Part shown: positions 262 to 11,736 of the stretch, piece by piece | Layout of the letters: each line of letters starts with the position of its first letter | Numbering within the stretch: position 1 is the stretch's first letter | Virus record (IMG/VR): IMGVR_UViG_2660238061_000007 | DNA: 12,000 nucleotides | From: a virus | Taxonomy: Duplodnaviria > Heunggongvirae > Uroviricota > Caudoviricetes | Reading direction: 5' to 3' (one strand) | Notes under the pieces: model-generated | Told to the model about the DNA's origin: nothing | Seen by the model: the letters and a program-made list of their open reading frames with translations, nothing else | Database searches by the model: none | Program-made: the position numbers and the translations under genes

Positions 262-342
262 CGCCTTTATGAAAAGACAGGAAAAAATAAAATTTAAAAA
301 CAGTACATTACGAATGCTCAGACCTATCGTTTAAAGGAGTCG

Positions 343-363
343 CAATACACACTGCAATACACG
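343..363. repeat. Terminal direct repeats GCAATACACA x2 (candidate integrase arm-type or att-associated sites, left island end)
   Basis: gcaatacacactgcaatacac here is 20/21 identical and co-oriented with gcaatacacattgcaatacac at 11035-11055 beside the integrase gene. Confidence 0.5.
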
Positions 364-699
364 ATTATTTATAAGATGAGCGGCATCCGTCATAAAGCTG
401 GTGGATGCTTTTTCTATGCATATATGCACAGTTTTAGTGGGCGTTAATGTCGATATAGGGATCCCCATATCGAGATTGGATACCTGGCTTTTTTCCGGTT
501 AACCTTTAATCAGGCTGGTGGGCTTTACCTGTTTTGTATGAGTGGTCATCATGACCATGTCATAACAAAAACCCCATATTCGTGGTTTTTCTGTGTCGGG
601 CTATTCTGTCGTTGCTGTGCTGATTTGGCTGGTGGGCTGAATCATCATTACGGCGATGCAGCTATGTAGACGTTCCGGCCTCCTCAAATTGAGGATTGT

Positions 700-830
700 G
701 GAAGAATCAATGGGTTAGTCTTACTTTCCCGACATCCCCCAATGGGGGTTTTCGAAACAATCAATAGCTTAGGCTTACTTCCCCGATTTCCTGCATTGCA
801 GGTTTTCGAAATAATCAATGGGTTAGGCCA
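700..830. repeat. About 2.5 copies of a ~54-bp tandem repeat, each copy containing a short GC-stem palindrome
   Basis: Unit GGTTTTCGAAA(C/T)AATCAAT(A/G)G(C/G)TTAGGC at 746-774 and 800-828, partial copy at 700-719; spacers TTACTT(T)CCCGA... are also related; palindromes CCCCCAATGGGGG (735-747), CCTGCATTGCAGG (789-801), GTGCAATTTTGCAC (835-848). Confidence 0.7.
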
Positions 831-1076
831 TCGTGCAATTTTGCACTTTGCCAGCCAGCGCAATGTCGCGTTATCAGTCCTCAGATGTGAGGGATGTAGC
901 CAGCTTTTCCCCCAGTGGGGGATATCCAGCACCGACGGCTTAACTGTGCGTGCCAGCACAAGGTAGCCTTGAACTACTTACTGCATCCCATCTTACAGGC
1001 CGTGCCTTCCTGCTTAACTTTTTGCAATGCAACAAGTCAGCCAGCGCAATTTTGCGTTATCGGGAATATCAGCAAG

Positions 1077-1358
1077 TTACCGCCGCAATCGTTCCGGCTT
1101 CTTCCACTGGTAAGTATTTTTCGCGCTCTCCCTCCGTTGTTGAGAACGGCGACGATATGCCAGCAACTCAAGGACTCTTGTTCGTATGTTGCGCATATCC
1201 ACGCCGTTAAGCTCAATACCGTCACGGCGCATCACCTCAGCCACTACACGCACATAATTATCTGCGGTCACGCTGTCCGGCTGCGTGGCCTGTTCGTCAT
1301 GCTGCTTGCTGATTCCACAAGCACGGCGGATTAATCGCAGTATTTCGGATTCAGTCAT
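1077..1358 (-). CDS. Hypothetical small basic protein (93 aa) downstream of terS
   Basis: Protein-like composition (MTESEILRLIRRACGISKQHDEQ...), same strand and operon position as terS; competing plus-strand ORFs are low-complexity. No confident family. Confidence 0.45.
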   Translation of the reverse strand: MTESEILRLIRRACGISKQHDEQATQPDSVTADNYVRVVAEVMRRDGIELNGVDMRNIRTRVLELLAYRRRSQQRRESAKNTYQWKKPERLRR

Positions 1359-1440
1359 AGCGTACTACGTTACTTATCTTTATTCGGCTGCAACTTATCC
1401 GGTACGTTTCCGGCAGTTTCCATCAGATAATCGGACAGCA

Positions 1441-1911
1441 TCAGCGGTATGTTTTCGTCAAGTTTTGCGCATGCGTTACAGGCTCTGATAACTTCTTTTT
1501 CAGTCCATCCAGCATAGACGGCTTCATGTCGGGAAACTTCCTTGTCATGGCAAGCGGCAGGCTGTCCATGATTGAAGAAATCTGACTCGCCAATTTTGAA
1601 AGCACGTATATACAAAACGCTGTATCAATAACGTCGCCGCGTTCGCGCTCGTTTTTAAGCTCCTGCGCCTCTGCCTGTGCTGTCAGCAATCTGATCCTGA
1701 CTCGTAGGAGTTCATCATCATCAATCTCGCCTTTGTCGTCTGTAATCTGGTTAATTGCATTGCTAACCCGATTGTCTATTACGCTGGCAACATCATAAAA
1801 CGCCTCGCGGCCTTTACGTTCAACGGGAGTCACTCCCCACTTGTCGAACGCTGTCGCACTTACACGGCAGCTTTGCGCCATGTTTTTTTTGTTCATCAGG
1901 TGCGATTTCAT
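1441..1911 (-). CDS. Small terminase subunit, lambda Nu1-like
   Basis: Translation aligns by eye with lambda Nu1: LLTAQAEAQELKNERERGDVIDTAFCIYVLSKLASQISSIMDSLPLAMTRKFPDM versus lambda LTRAQADAQELKNARDSAEVVETAFCTFVLSRIAGEIASILDGLPLSVQRRFPEL; N-terminal MNKK motif also shared. Start is ambiguous (ATG at 1923, 1911 or 1896); 1911 has the best SD (GGGGA). Lies about 130 bp downstream of a cosN. Confidence 0.9.
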   Translation of the reverse strand: MKSHLMNKKNMAQSCRVSATAFDKWGVTPVERKGREAFYDVASVIDNRVSNAINQITDDKGEIDDDELLRVRIRLLTAQAEAQELKNERERGDVIDTAFCIYVLSKLASQISSIMDSLPLAMTRKFPDMKPSMLDGLKKKLSEPVTHAQNLTKTYR

Positions 1912-2022
1912 CAATATCCCCACTTAAGTAATGTTTCAGGTTGGTGTATTGGCTTTATCTTTTCCTTTTTATTCATAGAGATAGAGCGAACAACAAAACC
2001 ACCACCAGCACCCGAAAAAGGC

Positions 2023-2061
2023 TCATAAATAGCGAAAACCCGCGAGGTCGCCGCCCCGTAG
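2023..2061 (-). other. cos: Lambda-type cos site (cosN with 12-nt cohesive end GGGCGGCGACCT)
   Basis: Minus strand reads CTACGGGGCGGCGACCTCGCGGGTTTTCGCTATTTATGA, matching the remembered lambda cos junction over about 37 nt; positioned immediately upstream of the Nu1-like gene as in lambda. Confidence 0.85.
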
Positions 2062-2112
2062 CCTACCGGATCGCCGGAAAGGACCCGCCAGCCAGAACGG
2101 GCCCTAATTTCA

Positions 2113-2496
2113 TCAACCAATCAACTTATAGCGACCATCCCGTGCATTGCGACGTACACGCTCAATCTTGAGGCATAGCGCCGCATCTGGCTTTTTTGGG
2201 ACAGGTACGCGGCAATATTCAGAAGATCGAGGAATATTGTTTATCCAGTCGATCACTTCACTTAAATACCAGGCCTTACGCCCTTCCGTAACCTGCACAC
2301 GCTCCGGGAACTCTCCACTAGCCTCAAGGTTTAGCAATGTGCGACGGCTAAGGGTAGTAAGTTCCATCACCTGATTCATATCAACAAGGCGTTCACTTAA
2401 ACGCATTTTGTCAGCAATAGCCTTTAATTCCTCTACTGCTGGATCCGGATACATCATTTCGGCAATTGGCTTAAGGTCATTGTAATGATTCTGCAT
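2113..2496 (-). CDS. AlpA/Xis-family HTH protein with N-terminal extension (127 aa)
   Basis: Central segment MELTTLSRRTLLNLEASGEFPERVQVTEGRKAWYLSEVIDWI fits the AlpA-type HTH pattern; strong SD (AGGGGGA) 4-5 nt upstream of the ATG, 11 nt after the gpD-like stop. Confidence 0.7.
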   Translation of the reverse strand: MQNHYNDLKPIAEMMYPDPAVEELKAIADKMRLSERLVDMNQVMELTTLSRRTLLNLEASGEFPERVQVTEGRKAWYLSEVIDWINNIPRSSEYCRVPVPKKPDAALCLKIERVRRNARDGRYKLIG

Positions 2497-2507
2497 TGTA
2501 TCCCCCT

Positions 2508-2849
2508 TTACACACGAGCCAGCGGCTGAACAGAAATACCTGAGCCAACAAACGCGGCAACCTTTGCCGACAGTTCTTTTACAGACTCAGGCCAGTTCAG
2601 AGCATCAACATTTAAAACACCTGTCTTATAAACCTGTGCCTGTGTTTTTTTCGCTGTGTCGATTTGTACAGCGGAAACATAAACCGCTTTACCTACGCTC
2701 GAACCATCCCATACCACCAGTGCACCTGTTGCATCTTCCTGCATCAGTGGCGTAAATGCAGGAATTACCCCTTTATTAGCTGAAAATATCCCCAGCGTAG
2801 TCACCAGTGCTTCAGTGCCAGCCATGAGTTCAGTGTAATGAGTAGCCAT
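2508..2849 (-). CDS. Head decoration protein, lambda gpD-like
   Basis: Shared motifs with lambda D by eye: TPLM, VVWDG (lambda VAWDG), YKTG (YKSG), NWPE (LWPE), AAFVGSGISV (TAFAGTAISIV); similar length (113 aa); SD GGGGGAG upstream. Confidence 0.8.
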   Translation of the reverse strand: MATHYTELMAGTEALVTTLGIFSANKGVIPAFTPLMQEDATGALVVWDGSSVGKAVYVSAVQIDTAKKTQAQVYKTGVLNVDALNWPESVKELSAKVAAFVGSGISVQPLARV

Positions 2850-2858
2850 TGCTCCCCC

Positions 2859-3905
2859 TTAGCCAATGCGAACGGTAACAAAACGATTGATGCGGGCCGG
2901 TATTGGCTGTGGTGCTGAATGTGTCTGCACATATTCAATAGCCGGATCACCAGGCACAATATAGTTTTTCGGTGCAAGTTCGGCTTTAGTCAGCCCCATT
3001 CGGATTAGCTCCGGATCCTGAATACCGCCATAGGCGACAATCCCCTGAAGAGCCGTATTGCCAAGCACCATCAAATCAGGATCAAGGAAATGTTTTTCTG
3101 TTCCGTCCTCGTCGGTATAACGCCCGCTGTAAACAACAATCGCAACATCGCCCATATACCCTTTAAAACTCACCGAATCACCAAGGTCTTTAAGGGCCGT
3201 TTCCAGTTCGGAATTAGAACCACGACGGGTATCCAAAGCCTCTTTTATCGCTCTGAATGAACGGTATTTCTTCCATACATTACCACCCATAATGATGATA
3301 TTAGTGACGCCCTCACTAAATTCTGCGTAGCTCTCAATATCATCATTTGGATCAAAAGTTTCTTTATCCTTACCTGACCACTCAGTACCGCCAGACTGAG
3401 TGATGATATTTTGTGGTTTTATATTCCAGTCCAGCTCATAACGTTCAATACCATCGCCCTCAATGATATTTTTCCCCGTTGTGATTGCCTGAACAGCAAG
3501 CCATTCAATACGTGCACGAATAGCTTTAGCCTGATTTACAATCGCCTGTTTAACTTTAATATTACGTGCCCCAAAAGCATTGTATTGCTCAGGTGATACA
3601 CCAGCAGGGCGCACAGCTAACTTATTTGGATCAATGCTGCTTTTCGGCTTCATATAGCCTGGACGAATTGTTTTTGATTCGTACCCTTCGTCACGTGAAA
3701 CTTTACTACCCACCATAGGAGAACAAAACGCTGCAATTGGGATATTTGGATCGTCGATTGTATCAAGAATAATATCGCGCGATTCAAACATTACCGAGCG
3801 AGTAAAAAACAAACTGGTAAACAACGCATTTAGTTGTTTTTGTACATCTACAGCATTAACCACCTGTACAAGCTGAGTAGGCGAATATAAATCAACCATA
3901 CGCAT
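2859..3905 (-). CDS. Major capsid protein, lambda gpE-like
   Basis: Strong similarity by eye to lambda E: NIITQSGGTEWSGKDKETFDPNDDIESYA versus NITQSGGTEWSKRDKSTYDPTDDIEAYA; DTRRGSNSELETALKDLG and GDVAIVVYSG and MVLGNT conserved. Start set at the internal Met (MRMVDLYSPTQL, like lambda MSMYTTAQLL) with SD AAGAGG; the ORF-track extension to 4112 is judged non-coding. Alternative start 3899. Confidence 0.9.
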   Translation of the reverse strand: MRMVDLYSPTQLVQVVNAVDVQKQLNALFTSLFFTRSVMFESRDIILDTIDDPNIPIAAFCSPMVGSKVSRDEGYESKTIRPGYMKPKSSIDPNKLAVRPAGVSPEQYNAFGARNIKVKQAIVNQAKAIRARIEWLAVQAITTGKNIIEGDGIERYELDWNIKPQNIITQSGGTEWSGKDKETFDPNDDIESYAEFSEGVTNIIIMGGNVWKKYRSFRAIKEALDTRRGSNSELETALKDLGDSVSFKGYMGDVAIVVYSGRYTDEDGTEKHFLDPDLMVLGNTALQGIVAYGGIQDPELIRMGLTKAELAPKNYIVPGDPAIEYVQTHSAPQPIPARINRFVTVRIG

Positions 3906-4073
3906 CCTCTTTGCATTCATTAAAAATAATTGTGGATATATGCTACCACCGATATTTGTCATGCGAACACATGCAACCGAGTGCAATGTTGTATAAAGTT
4001 TTGGGGTGACAACTTCAGTGCGGACAATTAGTGTTAATATCTTCACTCCCTTTGGTCGGGATTTATGTAGCAT

Positions 4074-4107
4074 GCCGGAAAATTTATTTTTTCCGGCCTT
4101 TTTTATT
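4074..4107. terminator. Hairpin with T-run (intrinsic-terminator-like) between ssb and the capsid gene
   Basis: GCCGGAAAA (4074-4082), loop TTTATT, TTTTCCGGC (4089-4097), followed by CTTTTTTATT on the plus strand; the minus-strand reading lacks a U-run, so the strand of action is uncertain. Confidence 0.4.
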
Positions 4108-4115
4108 GGCAATAT

Positions 4116-4565
4116 TTAAAACGGGATATCATCTCCCCATTGCTCATTATCTCCCACTGGTGGCTGGCTTCCTTGCTGATCTGCCTGTTGTTTTGCTCTG
4201 TTCAGTTCGTCAGTAGCCTGCCCCTGTTGGCCTTTTTTGCCGCCCGGTCGCGCCGTTCGCGCACTGATTACGCTGTCTGCGATAACCTGCCAGCCCCGCC
4301 GCGTTTCGCCGTTCTGGCCTGTCCACTGGCTTACCTGCATGTTACCCGCCACGCTCACCAGTTCGCCTTTGTGGTGTTTTGCCAGTGCGTCGGCCTGTCT
4401 GCCAAACGCCAGGACGGATAACCACATCGTCGCCGTTCCGTCATCTGCCTGGCTGCACGGCAGGGGAACCGCCATACTCGCCATCGCCATTTGTGTCCCT
4501 TTGCTGGTGGTCTTTAACTGCGGGTCAGCCACCAGCCGCCCGTAAGCCGCTATCTGTGCTGTCAT
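4116..4565 (-). CDS. ssb: Single-stranded DNA-binding protein (SSB)
   Basis: C-terminal acidic tip ...WGDDIPF as in E. coli SSB (DDDIPF); OB-fold region resembles SSB; Gly/Gln-rich linker. Start overlaps the upstream ORF stop (ATGA). Confidence 0.85.
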   Translation of the reverse strand: MTAQIAAYGRLVADPQLKTTSKGTQMAMASMAVPLPCSQADDGTATMWLSVLAFGRQADALAKHHKGELVSVAGNMQVSQWTGQNGETRRGWQVIADSVISARTARPGGKKGQQGQATDELNRAKQQADQQGSQPPVGDNEQWGDDIPF

Positions 4566-4876
4566 GCTGTCTGCTCTCCGGTTTTAACATTGATGGTTGT
4601 CACCTGTTCCGCTTCGGCAATCTCCCGTTCTGTCAGCGTGGCAAAGTTTGCCGCTGCTGTGGTCATGAATGCGCTTATCAGGTCGGGATGTTCCTTCGCG
4701 TATCCTGCCCGTGTGTGGTGGTCTATCGCTTTGATTGCCACCTTTAAGGAAAGCTCTGTCATGTCTAACGCTTTATATTTTGCCTGTGTTCTGTCTCTGC
4801 GAATTTTGGTCATTTGTCGCCCCTGATTCATGTTTTCGGCTGGCATGTTTATTAAGTGATTTTTATGTATGCGCAT
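4562..4876 (-). CDS. Hypothetical protein (up to 104 aa), translationally coupled to ssb
   Basis: ORF with ATGA overlap to the ssb start; no recognised family; start uncertain (internal Mets at residues 11, 16, 22). Confidence 0.45.
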   Translation of the reverse strand: MRIHKNHLINMPAENMNQGRQMTKIRRDRTQAKYKALDMTELSLKVAIKAIDHHTRAGYAKEHPDLISAFMTTAAANFATLTEREIAEAEQVTTINVKTGEQTA

Positions 4877-4925
4877 TTATTTTCACCCCCCCCTCGTTTA
4901 AAAAGTTTTTAGTTGTGCCTCCCCC

Positions 4926-5145
4926 CCTCTACCCATCTACCCGAATGCTCATCATGTCAGTAATGGCGCGGCTTTCAGCGGGTAGATAGCTTTTTGACTC
5001 CTCTACCTGCCGTCTACCCTGCTACCTGAAACTGATAAAATCAGGTAGAAGAGGTAGAGAGCTTTTATTAGCCTTCTACCTAGCCCTATACCCACTTATC
5101 ATGTTGAATAATATGCGTTTATTTTGTTCAGGTAGATGGGGTAGA
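4926..5145. repeat. ori: Iteron-type replication origin (about 11 copies of GGTAGA/TCTACC, often in tandem pairs)
   Basis: ctctacccatctaccc (4926-4942), ggtagata (4981), ctctacctgccgtctaccc (5001-5019), ggtagaagaggtagaga (5043-5059), ttctacct (5076), ggtagatggggtagatgg (5132-5149); flanked by AT-rich and poly-C tracts; immediately 3' of the primase gene. Confidence 0.7.
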
Positions 5146-5161
5146 TGGCTTTTACAAAAAA

Positions 5162-6916
5162 TTATAAAAACGCGTCGCAATCGTCTGTTGTAATTGCGTT
5201 GGTCTGCGTTACTCCCTTAACTTTTCGCGTAATATATTCATGCCCGTAAACTTTCGCCGCTGGCTTCATGGCCTTGCTGAACTCAGCCACGTTTAGCGGT
5301 TTGCTCCTGCCCGCGTATGCCATAAACGCCAGATAGACGCGGTAAAGGCTGTTCCTGGTCGTGTACTTCACTGAATCACCACCGCCACCCATCATCAGGC
5401 CGCGCGCTTCCTCCAGAAAATTCAGGAACTGGCAAAACTCAATAACCGGATCCGTCTGTTGCTTTATTGCCAGTGCTTCATCACCGTCACGCTGTTCCAG
5501 TAGTAAAGCCCGTGCCTTCTCAGGGTCGGTAAAGTTCGCCAGCAATCGGCGGATAATAACGGGGATTTCAGCCGCAATCTTTTCCGGTAGCTCCCTGTCT
5601 TTTTCGGCCTCACTGACGATATTGTCGAAACGGAAAATCACGCGACGACGTGCCACACCTCCGGCCCGTTCGGTGAATATCATCGGGTTGTTGTTGGTCG
5701 CCAGCACCACCGCCCTGATTACCGCCGTGAAACGCTTTTCATATTTCGGGTTAATTTCCACGGGGTCGCCGCCTGTGATTTTCTTGATGCCCGTTCCTTC
5801 GCCTGTATATTTCGGCTGGTCAGCCAGGACGATAAGACGACTCCCGACAACCTGCGCACGTCCACCAGCATCATCAAGCGATGTCATTTCAGCGCTTACC
5901 GTGTTCTGTTTCCCTGCCAGAAGGCTGGCTATGTGTGTGAATGTACTTTTACCGCTCCCGCCGTCTCCGGTGGCCTCAATAAACATCTGCCAGTCGTACC
6001 GGTTCGCCATAATCATGTACAGCGCGGCACATATACGCATCATCTTGCGCGGGTCTTTTCCGGCTGCGTGCTCAAGCCATTTATGAAAGTTTGGCGCGTT
6101 ATCGCGGATGTTCTCCCCTGGTGCTGGTGGCGTGTACTCAATGCCGTTGTGCGTGGTGATCCAGTTCTCCGGCGTGTGCGGGGAAAATTCCCCCGTTTTC
6201 AGGTCAAGCGCACCATTGGCGAACGGCAGCAAATCGCCAGACGGCTCGCCCATTGGTTCGGCAATAACTTTTAACGCTTCCACGGCGTTATTGATTACGC
6301 GCTTGCTGAAAGTGGCCCTGTGCTCTGAATAGATCGCCACCATTTCGCGGCTAAGTTCCATTGTGCTGACCGGACACCATACCCCGCCGCGCCATACGTG
6401 AACGATTTCACTTTCAGGATGTACGCAAACGCCATCAAAGCGATCGGCAAGCAACTGCGCGCGCTCACTGTCCGCCATCTGCGAAAGTTGCGCCTTTTGC
6501 TTTACCGGAAGCTCAATGACCAGACCATCAGAAAGATTCTGGCGTTCACGGGCCAGATATTCGCGCCAGTTCTGCACCTCCTGGCCGTGCATACCCTCAG
6601 GATAAAAATTTGCATCCTGTACGCCTGCTGCCGCCAGCTTCTGACCAATCGCCTTTATCATTACAGGCGCAAGATATCCGGCCCTGTATATGCGTGCTGA
6701 TTTTCGGCCTTCCGGCACAATTTGCAGATTATCCAGTTCGGATAGCTGCTGCTCCCCAAGCCACACAGGAGGCTCATTATCTCCGGCCATACGCGCATCA
6801 TGTTCCTGCCATTGTTTCGCGTGTGCCCAGGCATCACTACCCGCAAAAATAATGACTTCTGTTCCTTTGTGTTTTATGCCGCGTGACTGCTGTTTTACGT
6901 TCGGTGCCAGTTTCAT
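5162..6916 (-). CDS. P4-family primase/helicase (SF3 helicase-like P-loop NTPase), replication initiator
   Basis: 584-aa ORF with Walker A GDGGSGKST and a D5/P4 primase C-terminal-like region; SD GAGGT 6 nt upstream; followed by the iteron ori, the typical pri-ori layout of PICI/P4-like satellites. Confidence 0.85.
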   Translation of the reverse strand: MKLAPNVKQQSRGIKHKGTEVIIFAGSDAWAHAKQWQEHDARMAGDNEPPVWLGEQQLSELDNLQIVPEGRKSARIYRAGYLAPVMIKAIGQKLAAAGVQDANFYPEGMHGQEVQNWREYLARERQNLSDGLVIELPVKQKAQLSQMADSERAQLLADRFDGVCVHPESEIVHVWRGGVWCPVSTMELSREMVAIYSEHRATFSKRVINNAVEALKVIAEPMGEPSGDLLPFANGALDLKTGEFSPHTPENWITTHNGIEYTPPAPGENIRDNAPNFHKWLEHAAGKDPRKMMRICAALYMIMANRYDWQMFIEATGDGGSGKSTFTHIASLLAGKQNTVSAEMTSLDDAGGRAQVVGSRLIVLADQPKYTGEGTGIKKITGGDPVEINPKYEKRFTAVIRAVVLATNNNPMIFTERAGGVARRRVIFRFDNIVSEAEKDRELPEKIAAEIPVIIRRLLANFTDPEKARALLLEQRDGDEALAIKQQTDPVIEFCQFLNFLEEARGLMMGGGGDSVKYTTRNSLYRVYLAFMAYAGRSKPLNVAEFSKAMKPAAKVYGHEYITRKVKGVTQTNAITTDDCDAFL

Positions 6917-7212
6917 TTTTTACCTCTGAATCCGTTAATCATGGTTTTCATTTTCTGGATATTTCCCCACGCTTTTTCCCTGCTGATGGGCTTACTGCGG
7001 GGTGCGGCATATACCAGGGGAAAATCACGCCGGAACTGATAAACAGGCATCACGCAGTCATAGCTATACCCCTCACGGCGGTAAGTGATGCGCCGTTCTG
7101 CCACGCCTTTAATCGTTACCGTGCCGCCGTATTTATCGCGGTAAATATCGCCGTTCATAAATTCAGGTCGAGCGGGGCCGCTGGCAATAAAGCCAGAATT
7201 TTTCATTTCCAT
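6913..7212 (-). CDS. Hypothetical protein (99 aa), stop overlaps the primase start (ATGA)
   Basis: Translational coupling to the primase; SD-like GAGGAA upstream; no family recognised. Confidence 0.55.
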   Translation of the reverse strand: MEMKNSGFIASGPARPEFMNGDIYRDKYGGTVTIKGVAERRITYRREGYSYDCVMPVYQFRRDFPLVYAAPRSKPISREKAWGNIQKMKTMINGFRGKK

Positions 7213-7229
7213 ATTATTTATTCCTCGAC

Positions 7230-7451
7230 TTAACTCGACTTATTTGATAGCAGGGCACTATTTATTGCGTCATTGAGTTTTTCTGCTGATTCATCAATAA
7301 GTGACAACAGGCCATAAGCAATATTTGCATCTTCATTGTCATTTATGCAATCAAGCCACATATTTAATATTGCTTTTGCTGAATTATTTAAAGTTAATGA
7401 ACTTTCTGCACATGCTAACAATTTAAAAAAGACTTCCCGTTCTGTATTCAT
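7230..7451 (-). CDS. Hypothetical small acidic protein (73 aa) in an AT-rich block
   Basis: SD GGGGGA 4-5 nt upstream; stop of the upstream ORF directly abuts the ATG (TAAATG); local composition visibly more AT-rich than neighbours. Confidence 0.5.
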   Translation of the reverse strand: MNTEREVFFKLLACAESSLTLNNSAKAILNMWLDCINDNEDANIAYGLLSLIDESAEKLNDAINSALLSNKSS

Positions 7452-7643
7452 TTAATCCCCCACCAGCTTACTTTCTTCCTCAATCAAAAAACTAGCGACA
7501 CTTCCCGAAAGACGCGCCAGTAGGCTCGCCAGTGCGGATATATCAGCATCTGTAATTTTGTTCGGGTATACCTCAAGAAGGCGGCAAATAATTTCTGTCT
7601 GGTGCGCACGTTCAGCGGCTTCGTGTAATGTAATTTCCTGCAT
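7452..7643 (-). CDS. Hypothetical small acidic protein (63 aa)
   Basis: SD AGAGGTG upstream; start overlaps the upstream stop (TAATG); part of the coupled operon. Confidence 0.5.
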   Translation of the reverse strand: MQEITLHEAAERAHQTEIICRLLEVYPNKITDADISALASLLARLSGSVASFLIEEESKLVGD

Positions 7644-7828
7644 TAATGCACCTCTTTTAATTCATACACTGCTGAAATAATGACTTGTGATAAGCCATAT
7701 TCTGATGATTCGCTTCTCACCGCAGCAATAGCCGTCTGAACATTAACAGCCTTCACATTCTGAGCGATACCAATTGTGTGGCCTATTGGGTTAACAGCTC
7801 GGGCAAATACACGGAAGGTTTTAAGCAT
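7643..7828 (-). CDS. Hypothetical small protein (61 aa), first gene of the operon ending in the primase
   Basis: SD GGGAG 7 nt upstream of the ATG; preceded by a roughly 380-bp regulatory intergenic region. Confidence 0.5.
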   Translation of the reverse strand: MLKTFRVFARAVNPIGHTIGIAQNVKAVNVQTAIAAVRSESSEYGLSQVIISAVYELKEVH

Positions 7829-8047
7829 GACTCACTCCCTGGCGGATTTTTGCAGCGAATACAGCAACACAACCGGACGGGCAACGGCTACGCGCTTCGC
7901 GTTCCGTCCAGGCGGTTACGTGGATGATTTGAGATTCTCCGGCACTCAGTGCCAGAAAACGCCACACAAAGGCCGTTTGTGTGTGTACAAGGTGTGGTAT
8001 ATGATTTACAGCAACCATAACGGCTCCTAGTTTACGTTGTTGGTTAG

Positions 8048-8090
8048 ACGCCCCGTATGTGTTCCCAGCACTGCGGGGCGTTGCTCTTTG
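8048..8090 (+). terminator. GC-stem hairpin with downstream T-rich tract (terminator-like or regulatory structure)
   Basis: ACGCCCCG (8048-8055), 18-nt loop, CGGGGCGT (8074-8081), then TGCTCTTTGTATTTC. Confidence 0.3.
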
Positions 8091-8109
8091 TATTTCAACA
8101 ATCCTTTCG

Positions 8110-8188
8110 GTGTGTTTCATGTTATGAGCGCATGAAACACACGTCAAGGCTTTTTGTATTTCTTTTTTTGTGTATACTGAAACACACC
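8110..8188. promoter_or_regulatory. Operator/promoter region: perfect 12-bp inverted repeat plus a third half-site overlapping a -10-like TATACT
   Basis: GTGTGTTTCATG (8110-8121), 9-bp spacer, CATGAAACACAC (8131-8142); TGAAACACAC again at 8179-8188 next to TATACT (8173-8178); SD AGGAG 8 nt before the ATG at 8209. Confidence 0.6.
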
Positions 8189-8208
8189 GATGATTAGGAG
8201 TTTCAGAA

Positions 8209-8514
8209 ATGGCAACGGCTAACAAAAACGCAAAATCACAACTGACAACTGTCAGAGTCCCACTAGATGTTATGCAAGGGATGGAATCCGTTAAGCTGGA
8301 CGGTGAAAGCAATGCCGGATTTATCGTAACCGCCATGCGCGGAGAAATAGCCCGCCGCCAAGCAGAAGGCAGCGGAGAAAATCCCCTTGTGTCGTCACTG
8401 GATGCCCTGGCTAAGGTCGAACAAATCGGCATCAAAGCAGCCGAGGAGATCGGGCAACTCGTCACCGTCGCGCGTGAAGAACTCCAGCGACGCAAGGTCA
8501 AAGAGCATGAATAG
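8209..8514 (+). CDS. Putative ribbon-helix-helix DNA-binding protein (101 aa), candidate island regulator
   Basis: Excellent SD (AGGAG, 8-nt spacing); N-terminal LTTVRVPLDVMQGMESVKLDGESNAGFIVTAMRGEIARR fits a beta-strand/helix/helix RHH pattern; transcribed divergently from the small-gene/primase operon, beside palindromic operators. Confidence 0.55.
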   Translation: MATANKNAKSQLTTVRVPLDVMQGMESVKLDGESNAGFIVTAMRGEIARRQAEGSGENPLVSSLDALAKVEQIGIKAAEEIGQLVTVAREELQRRKVKEHE

Positions 8515-8571
8515 CCAATATCAGCGCCATAGTTTGAGGAACGCAGGCGCATTGCTTTACAGGACAGCACC

Positions 8572-8751
8572 ATGAGCGACACAGAATCAACCAAAACACC
8601 ATCACCAACTCGTAAGAGACGACGCAAAAATATAGCGCATGAACATGAATCAGAAAGATTCGCACCTTGTTCGTTTGCTCTTGAGAAATTCCTTAAAGAG
8701 CACAGGAAAAAGCTCTCGTTGCAAACCTTGGAACGAACCAAATCTGACTGA
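8572..8751 (+). CDS. Hypothetical small basic protein (59 aa)
   Basis: ORF below the 60-aa track cutoff, found by manual translation (MSDTESTKTPSPTRKRRRKNIAHEHE...); AGGA 7 nt upstream; followed by an intrinsic terminator. Confidence 0.35.
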   Translation: MSDTESTKTPSPTRKRRRKNIAHEHESERFAPCSFALEKFLKEHRKKLSLQTLERTKSD

Positions 8752-8817
8752 TCACATTGCCCACCAGCCGCAAATGTGGCATTGTTGGTGATGCTTTTGT
8801 TTTCCCTTGTTCCCACT

Positions 8818-8847
8818 GGCGACCCTTTTGCGGTCGCCTTTGTTTTG
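8818..8847 (+). terminator. Rho-independent terminator of the plus-strand two-gene unit
   Basis: GGCGACC (8818-8824), loop CTTTTGC, GGTCGCC (8832-8838), then TTTGTTTTG. Confidence 0.6.
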
Positions 8848-9426
8848 TCACTGAATGCGGTTACCAAAGTAAAACTCAGGCTGATATTCACGTATCAGCG
8901 TTTTTTCTTCTTCCTCCAGCTCACGCTTTTTGCGCTTACATGCCTGTAGCTCCCTCCCCTTCTCGCTGGCACTTATTTGATATTGCTCTTTACGGCGGGA
9001 AAAATCCTGTAATGCACCCCACGGGATACCATAAGTCCCCGTTTTTCTGATACCTGGTATCACATTTCTGAATACCCAGTTACTGAAACGATGAGCAAAT
9101 GTGCCAGGCGTCGTTGCTTTGCGGCTGCGGGCTATTAGTTTGTAGAAACCTGACTCAGAGATAATTCTCATATTCTGATTTCCTCCTGGGGTGTAAGTTA
9201 AATTTACTCCCTTTTCATCATCATCAAGCATCTGCAACGCCGTACGCGAATTGGTTAGTTCCAGCGCAGCACAAACATCTTTTGCAACAAACCACGGATC
9301 GCCGTTCAGATACACCACACGAACGTTCACACTATCAAAGCGCAGAACGACGAGATCACGAATATCGCAGAATTTTTTCACTGGACGAGCGTACCCCTTG
9401 CCCGTCACGGCAATATTTTTATTCAT
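8848..9426 (-). CDS. Bro-N domain protein (putative antirepressor-like)
   Basis: Bro-N hallmark segments VRVVYLNGDPWFVAKDVCAALEL, GGNQNMRIISESGFYKLIARSRK and FSNWVFRNVIPGIRKTGTY. Confidence 0.8.
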   Translation of the reverse strand: MNKNIAVTGKGYARPVKKFCDIRDLVVLRFDSVNVRVVYLNGDPWFVAKDVCAALELTNSRTALQMLDDDEKGVNLTYTPGGNQNMRIISESGFYKLIARSRKATTPGTFAHRFSNWVFRNVIPGIRKTGTYGIPWGALQDFSRRKEQYQISASEKGRELQACKRKKRELEEEEKTLIREYQPEFYFGNRIQ

Positions 9427-9444
9427 CGCGTTTTTACCTTATAG

Positions 9445-9470
9445 ACAAAAAACCCCTCGTGATGAGGGGC
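9445..9470 (-). terminator. Rho-independent terminator after alpA
   Basis: Minus strand reads GCCCCTC ATCAC GAGGGG TTTTTTGT, located between the alpA stop (9483) and the Bro-N start (9426). Confidence 0.55.
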
Positions 9471-9482
9471 ATTATTTACTGG

Positions 9483-9740
9483 TTATTGCTGTTTTGTTTT
9501 TCCAGGTTTCCATCCAGGATGCCACTCACCACGGATCCATGCCTGAACCTCTGAAAGTCGATACCCTGCAGCACGTTCACCGATCTTGATACGTCGCGGG
9601 AATTTACCTGCCTGCTCCATTTTCCAGCGTGTTGAGTTTGCCAGCGTGGTAAGTGCTATGCACTCTTTTTCACGAATGAACCGATCAATGTCCTTCATTG
9701 TGCGCAAATCGTTTTCATCAACAAGAGAATAAATTGCCAT
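9483..9740 (-). CDS. alpA: AlpA-family transcriptional regulator/excisionase-like HTH protein
   Basis: 85-aa protein with AlpA-type HTH (ALTTLANSTRWKMEQAGKFPRRIKIGERAAGYRLSEVQAWI); start 1 nt after the integrase stop, the typical int-alpA pairing of P4-like/PICI elements. Confidence 0.8.
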   Translation of the reverse strand: MAIYSLVDENDLRTMKDIDRFIREKECIALTTLANSTRWKMEQAGKFPRRIKIGERAAGYRLSEVQAWIRGEWHPGWKPGKTKQQ

Positions 9741-9741
9741 A

Positions 9742-10983
9742 TCACACCACCTCTTTATTAAGCTCGATAACGTTGTTGTTAAATCCTGCTATCGTATTAA
9801 GGTAATTAACCCACATATTAAGCACCTCAAGTTTTTTCTTTATATGCCTGCTTTTATTGTAAACACCAGCAACCCCTTTCACTTTATGACCTAAAAGAAG
9901 TTCGACAATATAAGGATCCGCCCCCATATCATTAAGCGTAGTGGAAAATGTGCGCCTGAAATCATGTATGCACCACAAGCCATTAGTATCATGACCAAGA
10001 CGCCTGCATATTCTGTTTGCAGCCCCTGTTATTGTCGCCCTTTGCAAAGCACAACCGACAACATAACCGCGATTTTTTGTTTCTGCGTAAAGATTAACGA
10101 TCCATTGTTTTATTCCGTCAGGAACAGGCCTTACTATAGCCTCCTTGTTTTTGCTGTGCTCTTTTGGGACTGTCCATACCCAGTTTTTTAAATCCCATTC
10201 GTCCCAGGTGGATAGCCTCGCCTCCTGCTGTCGGCAACCAAACACCAGGCAGATAACCATTATTCTTCGGTTATATATTGATGACAGAGTTAGCAAATTA
10301 TTACCGTAAGCATAAGACCATACATCAGCGGTTTCATTGATATTAAGAACGCGATCCCTTATACCGGATGAGCGCCCGACATAACTTACGTTAATATCTC
10401 CAAAGGGATCGCACGCGATGTATTGCCTGACGCGACAAAAACGCAACGCCTGTTTGATATCAAGAAAAATTGCACCAGACATAACAGGCGCATTTTTTTT
10501 GATCCTGTCAAAGACGGTAAGCCATGTGTGTAATTTGCACTGTTCTATAGCCATATCACCGATATAGGGGAAGATATGCTTTTCAAATCGTTTTATTAAA
10601 TATTCATGCTCTTTTCTGGCTGTTGTGGCGTGATTGTCGTACCAGTAAAACAGCGCATCCCTTACGGTCACTGGTTGCATAGTTTTTTCGGCAGCAAGTT
10701 TTATTTGCCTGCGGGGGTCCAGATTTTCAGCCAGCCATTCACGGCACTGATCACGCATGCGCCTGGCCGTTGCAAGAGACATGTCAGGATAGCGACCAAG
10801 TGTAAGCCATACCGGAGGGGATTCCCTGCCACCAAGACGATAGTAAAAAACAAAGCTGATCCCCCCAACCATGCTTACACGCACAGACAACCCGCGCCCA
10901 TCCGCTATTGTTTTTTGTTTGTCCTGCCGTTTTCCGACAAGACTCTTTAACAGTTTGTCACTGAGTTTGTTTTCAATAGCCAT
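9742..10983 (-). CDS. int: P4-type tyrosine integrase
   Basis: 413 aa; P4-family N-terminus (DKLLKSLVGKRQDKQKTIADGRGLSVRV...LGRYPDMSLATARRMRD) and catalytic-region motifs (HDFRRTF, LLGHK, Y near C-terminus); SD GAGGG upstream. Confidence 0.95.
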   Translation of the reverse strand: MAIENKLSDKLLKSLVGKRQDKQKTIADGRGLSVRVSMVGGISFVFYYRLGGRESPPVWLTLGRYPDMSLATARRMRDQCREWLAENLDPRRQIKLAAEKTMQPVTVRDALFYWYDNHATTARKEHEYLIKRFEKHIFPYIGDMAIEQCKLHTWLTVFDRIKKNAPVMSGAIFLDIKQALRFCRVRQYIACDPFGDINVSYVGRSSGIRDRVLNINETADVWSYAYGNNLLTLSSIYNRRIMVICLVFGCRQQEARLSTWDEWDLKNWVWTVPKEHSKNKEAIVRPVPDGIKQWIVNLYAETKNRGYVVGCALQRATITGAANRICRRLGHDTNGLWCIHDFRRTFSTTLNDMGADPYIVELLLGHKVKGVAGVYNKSRHIKKKLEVLNMWVNYLNTIAGFNNNVIELNKEVV

Positions 10984-11003
10984 TAAAAGCCCTCAAGAGA
11001 TTT

Positions 11004-11056
11004 GCAATACACACCCATCCCGATCGCCAATTTGCAATACACATTGCAATACACAA
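11004..11056. repeat. Three copies of TTGCAATACACA beside the int promoter (candidate integrase arm-type or att-associated sites, right island end)
   Basis: gatttgcaatacacacc (11004-11020) and gcaatacacattgcaatacac (11035-11055), co-oriented with the copies at 343-363. Confidence 0.5.
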
Positions 11057-11245
11057 AACCGCGAAAAACTGGAAGGGTGATGAACGGTCATCAAAAGCAT
11101 GGAAAACGACATTCCAGACGCAGCAAGGGTTTCAGTGGAGTTGGCGAACGATGCGGGCAACTACGGTGAGATGATAGACATAAATCGCCTTCACAATGGC
11201 GCTCTGCAGCTGCGTGTTCTGCAGCGTGTCGAGCATCTTCATCTG

Positions 11246-11255
11246 NNNNNNNNNN
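11246..11255. other. Assembly gap (N10)
   Basis: Run of 10 N. Confidence 0.9.
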
Positions 11256-11726: not shown

Positions 11727-11736
11727 NNNNNNNNNN
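11727..11736. other. Assembly gap (N10)
   Basis: Run of 10 N; the FII-like reading frame does not continue across it. Confidence 0.9.

Follow-up and report, generated by a model that had tools for sequence, protein, structure and literature searches.

A second AlpA-family protein encoded with the capsid genes of a phage satellite

The DNA considered here is a stretch of 12,000 nt from the IMG/VR virus record IMGVR_UViG_2660238061_000007 (the window, meaning this whole stretch). Positions ~270-11190 on the minus strand are occupied by a helper-embedded phage-inducible chromosomal island (HE-PICI), a satellite of the type described by Tommasini et al. 2023 (PMC10111431). The satellite interrupts the portal gene of a lambdoid prophage at icd, as seen in a 99.9%-identical complete genome (NZ_AP045067). 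Besides AlpA1, the product of the canonical alpA gene next to the integrase gene int, it encodes a second protein of the AlpA family, AlpA2, in the third gene of its capsid operon. A preliminary description of this region, made from the letters alone, had reported a 127-aa protein with an AlpA/Xis-type helix-turn-helix (HTH) between a gpD-like gene and cosN; both the open reading frame (ORF) and its position were borne out, the former by Pfam, PHROG, and RefSeq matches and by signs of purifying selection. The operon and its immediate surroundings comprise the following features.

4074..4097, no strand given: GC-rich hairpin with flanking A/T runs (sequence inspection)
3961..3996, minus strand: candidate AlpA2 operator of four direct repeats at exactly 10 bp (from comparison of loci)
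3940..3948, minus strand: extended -10-like box TGGTAGCAT of a putative capE promoter, 18 nt past the last repeat unit (start to start)
2859-3899, minus strand: capE, first in the operon, for a major capsid protein like lambda gpE (RefSeq start 3899; alternative ATG at 3905)
2508-2849, minus strand: D, lambda gpD-like head decoration gene (profile matches)
2113-2496, minus strand: alpA2, 127 aa, third gene of the operon
2073-2086, minus strand: cosQ GGGTCCTTTCCGGC, lambda-like, starting 26 nt past the AlpA2 stop codon
2045-2056, minus strand: cosN cohesive end GGGCGGCGACCT, lambda-like

The positions of cosQ and cosN were assigned by alignment with cos1 of EcCICFT073 and by identity to the lambda cos sequence. 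The preliminary description had further called AlpA2 translationally linked to the capsid genes. It is indeed tightly packed with them in one operon, but the reading frames do not overlap: 11 nt separate the stop codon of D from the ATG of AlpA2, which has a strong Shine-Dalgarno sequence of its own (AAGGGGGA).

Conservation and predicted structure of AlpA2

AlpA2 (RefSeq WP_057688279.1) matches the Pfam family Phage_AlpA (PF05930) with 35.3 bits at a gathering cutoff of 21, residues 36-85 corresponding to positions 2-51 of the 51-position profile, and matches phrog_2790 at 2.2e-48 over residues 11-109. It gave no match to a small terminase (Nu1 family) profile, Phage_AlpA being its only assignment; the Nu1-like protein of the region is the neighbour encoded at 1370-1912. 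AlpA2 is found in 398 of 5426 complete E. coli genomes (7%). Its length of 127 aa is constant across genera of the Enterobacteriaceae, with orthologs of 50-95% identity in Enterobacter, Citrobacter, Klebsiella, Salmonella, Kosakonia, Kluyvera, Cedecea, Pluralibacter, Buttiauxella, and others, and no homologs were found among 50,697 records of cultured phages. Codon comparisons indicate that the protein is under purifying selection, with dN/dS values of ~0.06 in the HTH, 0.25 in the C-terminal helix, 0.56 in the first ~17-18 residues, and 0.18 overall, dS being saturated.

In the preliminary description, the protein had been credited with an extra N-terminal 40 residues. About half of this stretch is common to AlpA1, which has 18 residues ahead of its Pfam domain that align with AlpA2 residues ~17-35, and sequence peculiar to AlpA2 is confined to the first ~17 residues. 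These first ~17 residues are the least constrained part of the protein and are absent from relatives of 112-117 aa as well as from a common 114-aa E. coli variant. The extension that defines the subfamily is formed by the conserved C-terminal residues 88-127, not by the N-terminal part. This tail is matched by only three 50%-identity clusters among 1.84 billion representative proteins, the remaining ~820 matches covering the HTH alone, and the subfamily that carries it is restricted to Enterobacterales. Comparison with the int-adjacent AlpA, which had been suggested as a check, showed that AlpA1 is 33% identical to AlpA2 in the HTH and has a different recognition helix (LANSTRWK in AlpA1, LSRRTLLN in AlpA2). 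A 244-aa protein from a metagenomic Logan contig (P0250) combines an HDPD (decoration) domain with a Phage_AlpA domain; it is probably a fusion of D and AlpA2 that arose by loss of the D stop codon or by a frameshift.

An AlphaFold2 model of AlpA2 was built from an alignment of 61 sequences and reached a predicted local distance difference test score (pLDDT) of 79.6, with values above 90 in the core; with 25 close sequences, the pLDDT was only 52. The model consists of a helical hairpin (4-33), a winged HTH (36-87), a weakly predicted linker, and a conserved C-terminal helix (105-120). The winged HTH comprises helices 40-47 and 51-60, a wing at 67-77, and a helix at 78-86, and by this model AlpA2 would belong to the Xis/MerR-like winged-helix class. 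Its nearest solved structures are excisionases, namely the GIsul2 excisionase (8c3t), RdfS, and Pukovnik Xis. The N-terminal helices and the C-terminal helix have no counterpart in the PDB. The predicted fold thus places AlpA2 in the excisionase/MerR-like class, a class in which regulators, recombination directionality factors (RDFs), and terminase-like DNA binders are not separable by fold.

Linkage of AlpA2 to capE-D and its relation to cos

For the comparison of gene neighbourhoods, ~180 related loci were collected and their neighbouring genes tabulated by tblastn. AlpA2 is preceded by capE-D of the window type in 135 of 135 loci, with a gap between D and AlpA2 of 6-10 nt in the relatives and thus 6-11 nt everywhere when the window is included. 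In all 27 loci with capE-D of the EcCICFT073 type, these genes are followed by an unrelated gene for a 137-aa protein, X137. On the other side of cos, the window encodes the following features.

1937-2009, minus strand: cosB-like region of an N15-type terminase module, with GCTGGTGGTGGTTTTGTTGTTC at 1988-2009 in the R3 position and a CAATACACCAACCTG box at 1937-1951
1370-1912, minus strand: gene for the N15-like small terminase TerS* (180 aa in NZ_AP045067)
1077-1358, minus strand: gene for a 93-aa protein

The genes downstream of cos assort freely with those upstream. AlpA2 occurs together with the N15-like TerS* and an N15-type cosB in 99 loci and in the absence of both TerS* and Rpp in 32 loci, in ~30 of which cosQ/cosN is followed by a lambda-type cosB. 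X137 in turn occurs with TerS* in 26 loci and with RppA in EcCICFT073. This assortment argues that the inherited unit is capE-D-AlpA2(-cosQ) and that recombination occurs at the conserved cosN. More generally, the modules flanking the conserved cosQ/cosN (window 1937-2086; loci L005-L172) recombine freely, with either [capE-D-AlpA2] or [capE'-D'-X137] on one side of cos and TerS* with its cosB, RppA, or a lambda-type cosB without terS on the other; the cohesive-end sequences among these satellites are GGGCGGCGACCT, GGGCGTCAGGCG, and GGGCGGAAGGCG.

The variability of the genes across cos also argues against a role of AlpA2 as an accessory of cos or cosB, which the preliminary description had considered in the form of a cos-proximal DNA-binding factor analogous to integration host factor (IHF) or a cosB accessory. 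Two conserved boxes lie 3' of cosN, the block at the R3 position (GCTGGTGGTGGTTTTGTTGTTC), which resembles GGTTGTTGTTT of N15, and CAATACACC. Both track TerS* whether AlpA2 is present or not, and no conserved site in the cos region was found to track AlpA2. The R3-like TTGTTGTT block resembles the cosB of N15, and among phage proteins it is the TerS of N15 to which TerS* is most closely related. The CAATACACC / GGTGTATTG box ahead of terS* was rejected as an AlpA2 site, since 22 of the 26 loci with TerS* but without AlpA2 have it as well. Between genera, the spacer from the AlpA2 stop codon to cosQ is not conserved, cos lies 416-780 nt away from AlpA2 in Pluralibacter and in locus L091, and an extra ORF intervenes in locus L184. 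An obligate partnership with TerS* and a function as cosB factor were rejected in view of the assortment and of the loci in which cos is distant.

A relation to the Rpp proteins of other PICIs was likewise rejected. Rpp proteins are encoded downstream of cos at the position of terS and consist of an N-terminal DNA-binding domain followed by dimerisation helices (PMC6739421, PMC9026076), and they go with a PICI-specific cosB. AlpA2 is encoded upstream of cosQ, hence on the wrong side of cos, and has no sequence similarity to them; it assorts independently of the cosB type, and in this satellite the slot after cos is occupied by a true N15-like TerS. No match of RppC to AlpA2 was obtained in a PDB sequence search at E<=1, and BLASTP gave no alignment of the two cos-flanking proteins of the window with their positional counterparts X137 and RppA in EcCICFT073.

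The counterpart X137 (L008 2084-2497; NC_004431 1387083-1387496; probably c1501) matches positions 495-567 of the head maturation protease family phrog_53 with an E value of 1e-8. The matched region is the C-terminal part of this family, which corresponds to the lambda scaffold Nu3. EcCICFT073 may thus encode a scaffold-like protein beside its capsid and decoration proteins, and the slot between D and cos does not in itself imply DNA binding. A marker strain of EcCICFT073, c1501::tetA, in which the X137 gene is probably disrupted, still transfers (PMC6092414).

A phased repeat array upstream of capE

Every member of the family has ~230-265 nt of non-coding DNA ahead of capE, whichever gene lies upstream. 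This DNA is mostly unconserved, with the exception of an array of TTGCAY/TTATAC direct repeats and a TGnTAnnnT box. In the window, the array consists of the units TTATAC (3996-3991), TTGCAC (3986-3981), TTGCAT (3976-3971), and TCGCAT (3966-3961). Across 11 lineages it has two to five units, always at 10-bp spacing, and the box, which is present in 9 of the 11, follows at 17-18, 27-28, or 37 nt, distances at which the helical phase is kept.

A pattern of two such units at -130..-40 of capE was found in 133 of 134 AlpA2-type loci and in none of the 29 X137-type loci, with 12 matches elsewhere in 1.4 Mb. The pattern of three units occurs at this site alone within the window, where 0.01 would be expected from shuffled sequences, and is absent from the 29.5-kb locus L180, which contains the remainder of the helper prophage together with adjoining chromosomal DNA. 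A phased array in a putative promoter region that tracks the protein is what would be expected of a transcription factor that binds direct repeats in an Xis- or BldC-like mode. A sigma-54 promoter formed by TTGCAC-N4-TTGCAT was rejected by inspection, as the GG at -24 is missing and the spacing deviates by one.

A copy of the two-unit pattern with one mismatch (TTGCATCTTCCTGCAT) is located inside the D gene at 2729-2744 on the plus strand. The 12 stray exact matches in related loci have a comparable position, on the opposite strand and ~1.2 kb past the point where capE starts; these copies may be due to chance or may be a secondary site. On the upstream side, a hairpin comparable to the one at 4074-4097 lies between the replication/SSB module, which includes the gene for single-stranded DNA-binding protein (SSB), and the capE promoter in all lineages inspected (L002-L014, L183), with a different sequence. 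Possibly a terminator, it could shield the capsid operon against early transcription.

Candidate readers of the array

The array persists while most other parts of the islands change. It is found with three unrelated replication modules (D5_N, AAA_25, and DUF927), by which a function of the repeats as replication iterons is ruled out, and at different integration sites (portal, capE, fis, and mug-rpoD), where the integrases differ, too. The int-proximal regulator of islands with the array is either of the AlpA1 type or an unrelated HTH_17 protein, as in L177 and in Pluralibacter (L183; BLASTP E 0.76). In Buttiauxella (L002), the int-proximal protein is 18-19% identical to AlpA1, and a degenerate array remains. 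Across these changes of regulator, module, and site, the recognition helix of AlpA2, TTLSRRT, is invariant. In a Serratia clade of fis-type PICIs, the array units are TTAGAC/TTGTGC instead of TTGCAY/TTATAC, and the AlpA2 of this clade has SRQT in place of SRRT and several substitutions in the wing. The parallel change of array and recognition helix represents, as judged from the alignments, one covariation event.

The int-proximal alternatives were examined by means of the attachment-site arm (att-arm) motif tgTGTATTGCa, which has been published for HE-PICIs (PMC10111431). In the chromosomal islands at mug-rpoD (L012, L013, and L183), the array and AlpA2 are present but the doubled arm motif is absent; conversely, the X137-type HE-PICI L142 has the arm motif and no array. 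The array is thus separable from the att-arm motif of HE-PICIs. That AlpA1 or the arm domain of the HE-PICI integrase binds the repeats is disfavoured, as the array is kept with an HTH_17 regulator in islands without the arm motif and the arm motif occurs without the array. Co-variation of AlpA2 with the integrase or the att-arm motif, as expected of an RDF, was not observed among these loci. The suggestion in the preliminary description that AlpA2 is something other than an excisionase is plausible in this respect and does not extend to the fold, which is that of excisionases; an RDF activity is conceivable. The array and the att-arm motif have the core ATTGCA in common, perhaps because the two AlpA paralogs are related in specificity, and cross-talk between them may occur.

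Proposed mechanism and alternatives

It is tentatively proposed, with a confidence somewhat short of even, that AlpA2 is a dedicated transcription factor of the satellite capsid operon capE-D-alpA2, which it would activate via the repeat array. Among the functions suggested in the preliminary description, a late-module activator is the one favoured, given that AlpA2 is co-inherited with capE-D and with a phased array in the region 3906-4073, flagged there as the putative capsid promoter. Briefly, several AlpA2 winged helices would bind the two to five direct repeats head-to-tail, a mode of binding used by Xis-type proteins and BldC. The array would thereby be occupied directly upstream of, and in fixed helical phase with, a putative extended -10 promoter without a good -35 element, and AlpA2 would activate transcription from there. 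Activation is favoured over other modes of control because of the poor -35, the array in phase with the -10 box, and shifts of the array by whole helical turns only. As alpA2 is the last gene of the operon that it would control, a positive feedback loop would result. The first AlpA2 would be made by a pulse of read-through, the source of which could be the Q-modified late transcript of the helper, while the satellite is still embedded, or else the early operon driven by AlpA1. Subsequently, AlpA2 would sustain the synthesis of capsid and decoration protein from the satellite promoter after excision, and where a terminator is absent, transcription would continue across cos into terS*.

Several points weigh against this proposal. 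The entire support for regulation of the array by AlpA2 is comparative, most of the sampled loci are close relatives from E. coli, and the covariation support is a single evolutionary event. The co-inheritance of capE, D, alpA2, and the promoter may partly reflect physical adjacency. In Buttiauxella, the repeats are most degenerate (TTATAC twice) although the recognition helix is conserved. Because of the common ATTGCA core, the arm domain of the integrase or AlpA1 might also read the array in HE-PICIs, and a helper or host factor is possible as array binder. Furthermore, where the gene for an activator comes last in the operon that it activates, some outside trigger is required, which is only postulated here, and the overlap of the last repeat unit with the -35 position fits a repressor as well.

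The last point leads to the reading in which AlpA2 binds the array as a negative autoregulator or repressor and keeps the capsid operon low, during lysogeny or to control dosage, until it is relieved. It would account for the promoter-proximal unit at ~-33 to -28, an extended -10 promoter can function without an activator, and a regulator within its own operon is typical of autorepression. This reading is nevertheless rather unlikely, as the shifts of the array by whole turns (17-18, 27-28, and 37 nt) fit contacts with RNA polymerase on one face of the helix better than occlusion, a constitutively autorepressed structural operon would make capsid protein in the lysogen, and no candidate for an anti-repressor was seen. 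An improbable but broader variant of activation is a dual late switch, in which AlpA2 would read ATTGCA both at the capE array, locking on capsid expression once the satellite has left the helper late transcript, and at the att-arm repeats, biasing recombination, for example by blocking re-integration into the repaired helper gene. The C-terminal helix would contact RNA polymerase, the integrase, or both, and AlpA2 would be a hybrid of regulator and RDF resembling P4 Vis, by which the expression of the capsid genes would be coupled to the direction of recombination.

That AlpA2 is purely a second RDF, be it a paralog of the satellite excisionase that acts, for example, as a late block to re-integration or a stand-in for the Xis of the helper, is very unlikely, even though its nearest structures are excisionases, the capE repeats have their core in common with the att-arm motif, and there is a precedent in EcCIMP1, where a second AlpA supports helper excision (PMC11773190). 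RDFs co-evolve with their integrase and att sites, whereas AlpA2 is conserved across differing integrases and sites, even without the arm motif; alpA2 is part of the late operon and does not adjoin int, and the arm motif is found in X137-type HE-PICIs without AlpA2. Just as doubtful is a main function at helper or host genes, for example as repressor of helper capsid or late functions, with another factor binding the array. A satellite with its own capE and D could well profit from lowering the helper versions, and a repressor of the helper capsid gene, CapR, encoded by a phage-inducible chromosomal island-like element (PLE), is described in the HE-PICI paper (PMC10111431). The phased array is, however, absent from the late genes flanking the satellite in L001, from L180, and from the helper flanks of ~160 loci, and regulation of the helper via the same motif was rejected for the helper sequence examined; besides, lambdoid late genes use a single Q-dependent promoter, so there would be no gene-specific promoters to repress. 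The least probable of the readings is that of a packaging accessory, which would bind cosQ, cosN, or cosB or act as partner of the small terminase in the manner of IHF, a cosB factor, or Rpp. It is opposed by the findings at cos described above: the assortment with and without TerS* and the replacement by X137, the co-occurrence of the R3-like block and CAATACAC with TerS*, the variable spacer and distant cos sites, the lack of similarity to Rpp, and the gene resembling Nu3 in the EcCICFT073 slot, whose probable disruption is compatible with transfer.

Other features of the satellite and the window

The remaining genes of the satellite are arranged upstream of the capsid operon as follows.

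9742-10983, minus strand: int (ATG at 10983-10981)
9483-9740, minus strand: AlpA1, canonical int-adjacent alpA (profile matches)
Minus strand, between alpA and the primase in gene order: Bro-N protein, then small ORFs
5162-6916, minus strand: D5-type primase
4116-4565, minus strand: SSB

The ends of the satellite are fixed by doublets of the att-arm motif at 11033-11053 and 341-361 on the minus strand. A third copy, at 11003-11011, sits just upstream of the int start codon, and int may be autoregulated. Between the gene for the 93-aa protein and the satellite end lies repeat-rich non-coding DNA (640-1076, minus strand) with three direct repeats at a period of ~55-60 nt (CCCATTGATTATTTCGAAAACC, GCTATTGATTGTTTCGAAAACC, and CCCATTGATTCTTCCACAATCC) and two copies of ATTGCGCTGGCTG.

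The terS* gene is intact in NZ_AP045067. In the window, a 1-nt deletion in a T-run at ~1495 (T5 instead of T6) breaks it up into two ORFs, 1441-1923 and 1370-1615, and it is a pseudogene here unless the deletion is a sequencing error in the homopolymer. Runs of 10 N occur at three places, 90-99, 11246-11255, and 11727-11736. Past position 11245, the window loses collinearity with the reference genome: 11292-11357 corresponds to the antitoxin RNA rdlD, presumably part of a chromosomal type I toxin-antitoxin locus, and 11737-12000 matches the head-tail joining gene FII of the helper, which in the reference is found ~4 kb away in the opposite direction. The right end of the window has the appearance of an assembly or scaffold join.

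Relation to known systems and significance

P4 Vis is an AlpA-family satellite protein that regulates satellite promoters and also acts in excision. It is short and encoded next to the immunity/eta region, and P4 lacks capsid genes, whereas AlpA2 is encoded in a capsid operon. BldC of Streptomyces (6ama/6amk), a small MerR-like protein, has 13-18% identity to AlpA2, which amounts to no sequence relationship, and differs in its biology; array binding by AlpA2 is predicted. In contrast to excisionases and RDFs such as 8c3t, RdfS, Pukovnik Xis, TorI, and lambda Xis, AlpA2 has no association with an integrase or att site and carries the additional terminal helices described above. The antiterminator mechanism of Pseudomonas aeruginosa AlpA was ruled out for AlpA2, since that protein has a Q-like fold of eight helices that includes an N-terminal ring and a C-terminal HTH, unlike the AlpA2 model, and has only the name in common.

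The AlpA protein of EcCICFT073 functions as an activator of transcription, also at its own promoter (Fillol-Salom 2018, PMC6092414), and in the literature on Gram-negative PICIs, a single int-adjacent AlpA is the master activator (PMC6092414). This protein and AlpA1 belong to the same Phage_AlpA family as AlpA2, have the same winged HTH, and also originate from Gram-negative PICIs. Apart from its recognition helix and its 40-residue C-terminal tail, AlpA2 differs from the canonical AlpA in being encoded after capE-D, ~7 kb from int and not downstream of it, in having its candidate operator in the capsid promoter, and in being present even where the int-proximal regulator is not AlpA. Typical E. 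coli PICIs have one AlpA, and EcCIMP1 has a second one, alpA_1 (PMC11773190), which like AlpA2 is not the master regulator. The gene alpA_1 occupies the distal end of the island, in opposite orientation, and its product resembles the helper Xis and is able to replace it; EcCIMP1 has no capsid genes. An alpA homolog also heads the late-promoter transcript of P4 (PMC10111431). The HE-PICI paper classes Phage_AlpA under 'integration', and its text contains no discussion of a late-zone AlpA copy (PMC10111431). No published description of an AlpA-family gene in a satellite capsid operon was found. Thus, the AlpA family itself is known, and AlpA2 is new by its distinctive tail, its genomic position, and its candidate cognate operator.

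In the current view, a Gram-negative PICI is governed by a single AlpA as its master activator. The comparison presented here defines a narrow, conserved AlpA subfamily that is built into a capE-D cassette with a specific promoter array. The free recombination of the modules flanking cos matters for predicting the packaging specificity of satellites. In EcCICFT073, deletion of the capsid genes causes no clear phenotype in transfer or interference; a single protein, a candidate operator of 36 bp, and one pair of covarying variants provide a testable handle on the role of satellite capsid and decoration proteins. If the proposed regulation holds true, promoter, capsid genes, and regulator would form a portable, self-contained late circuit that moves among islands differing in integrase, replication module, and packaging strategy.

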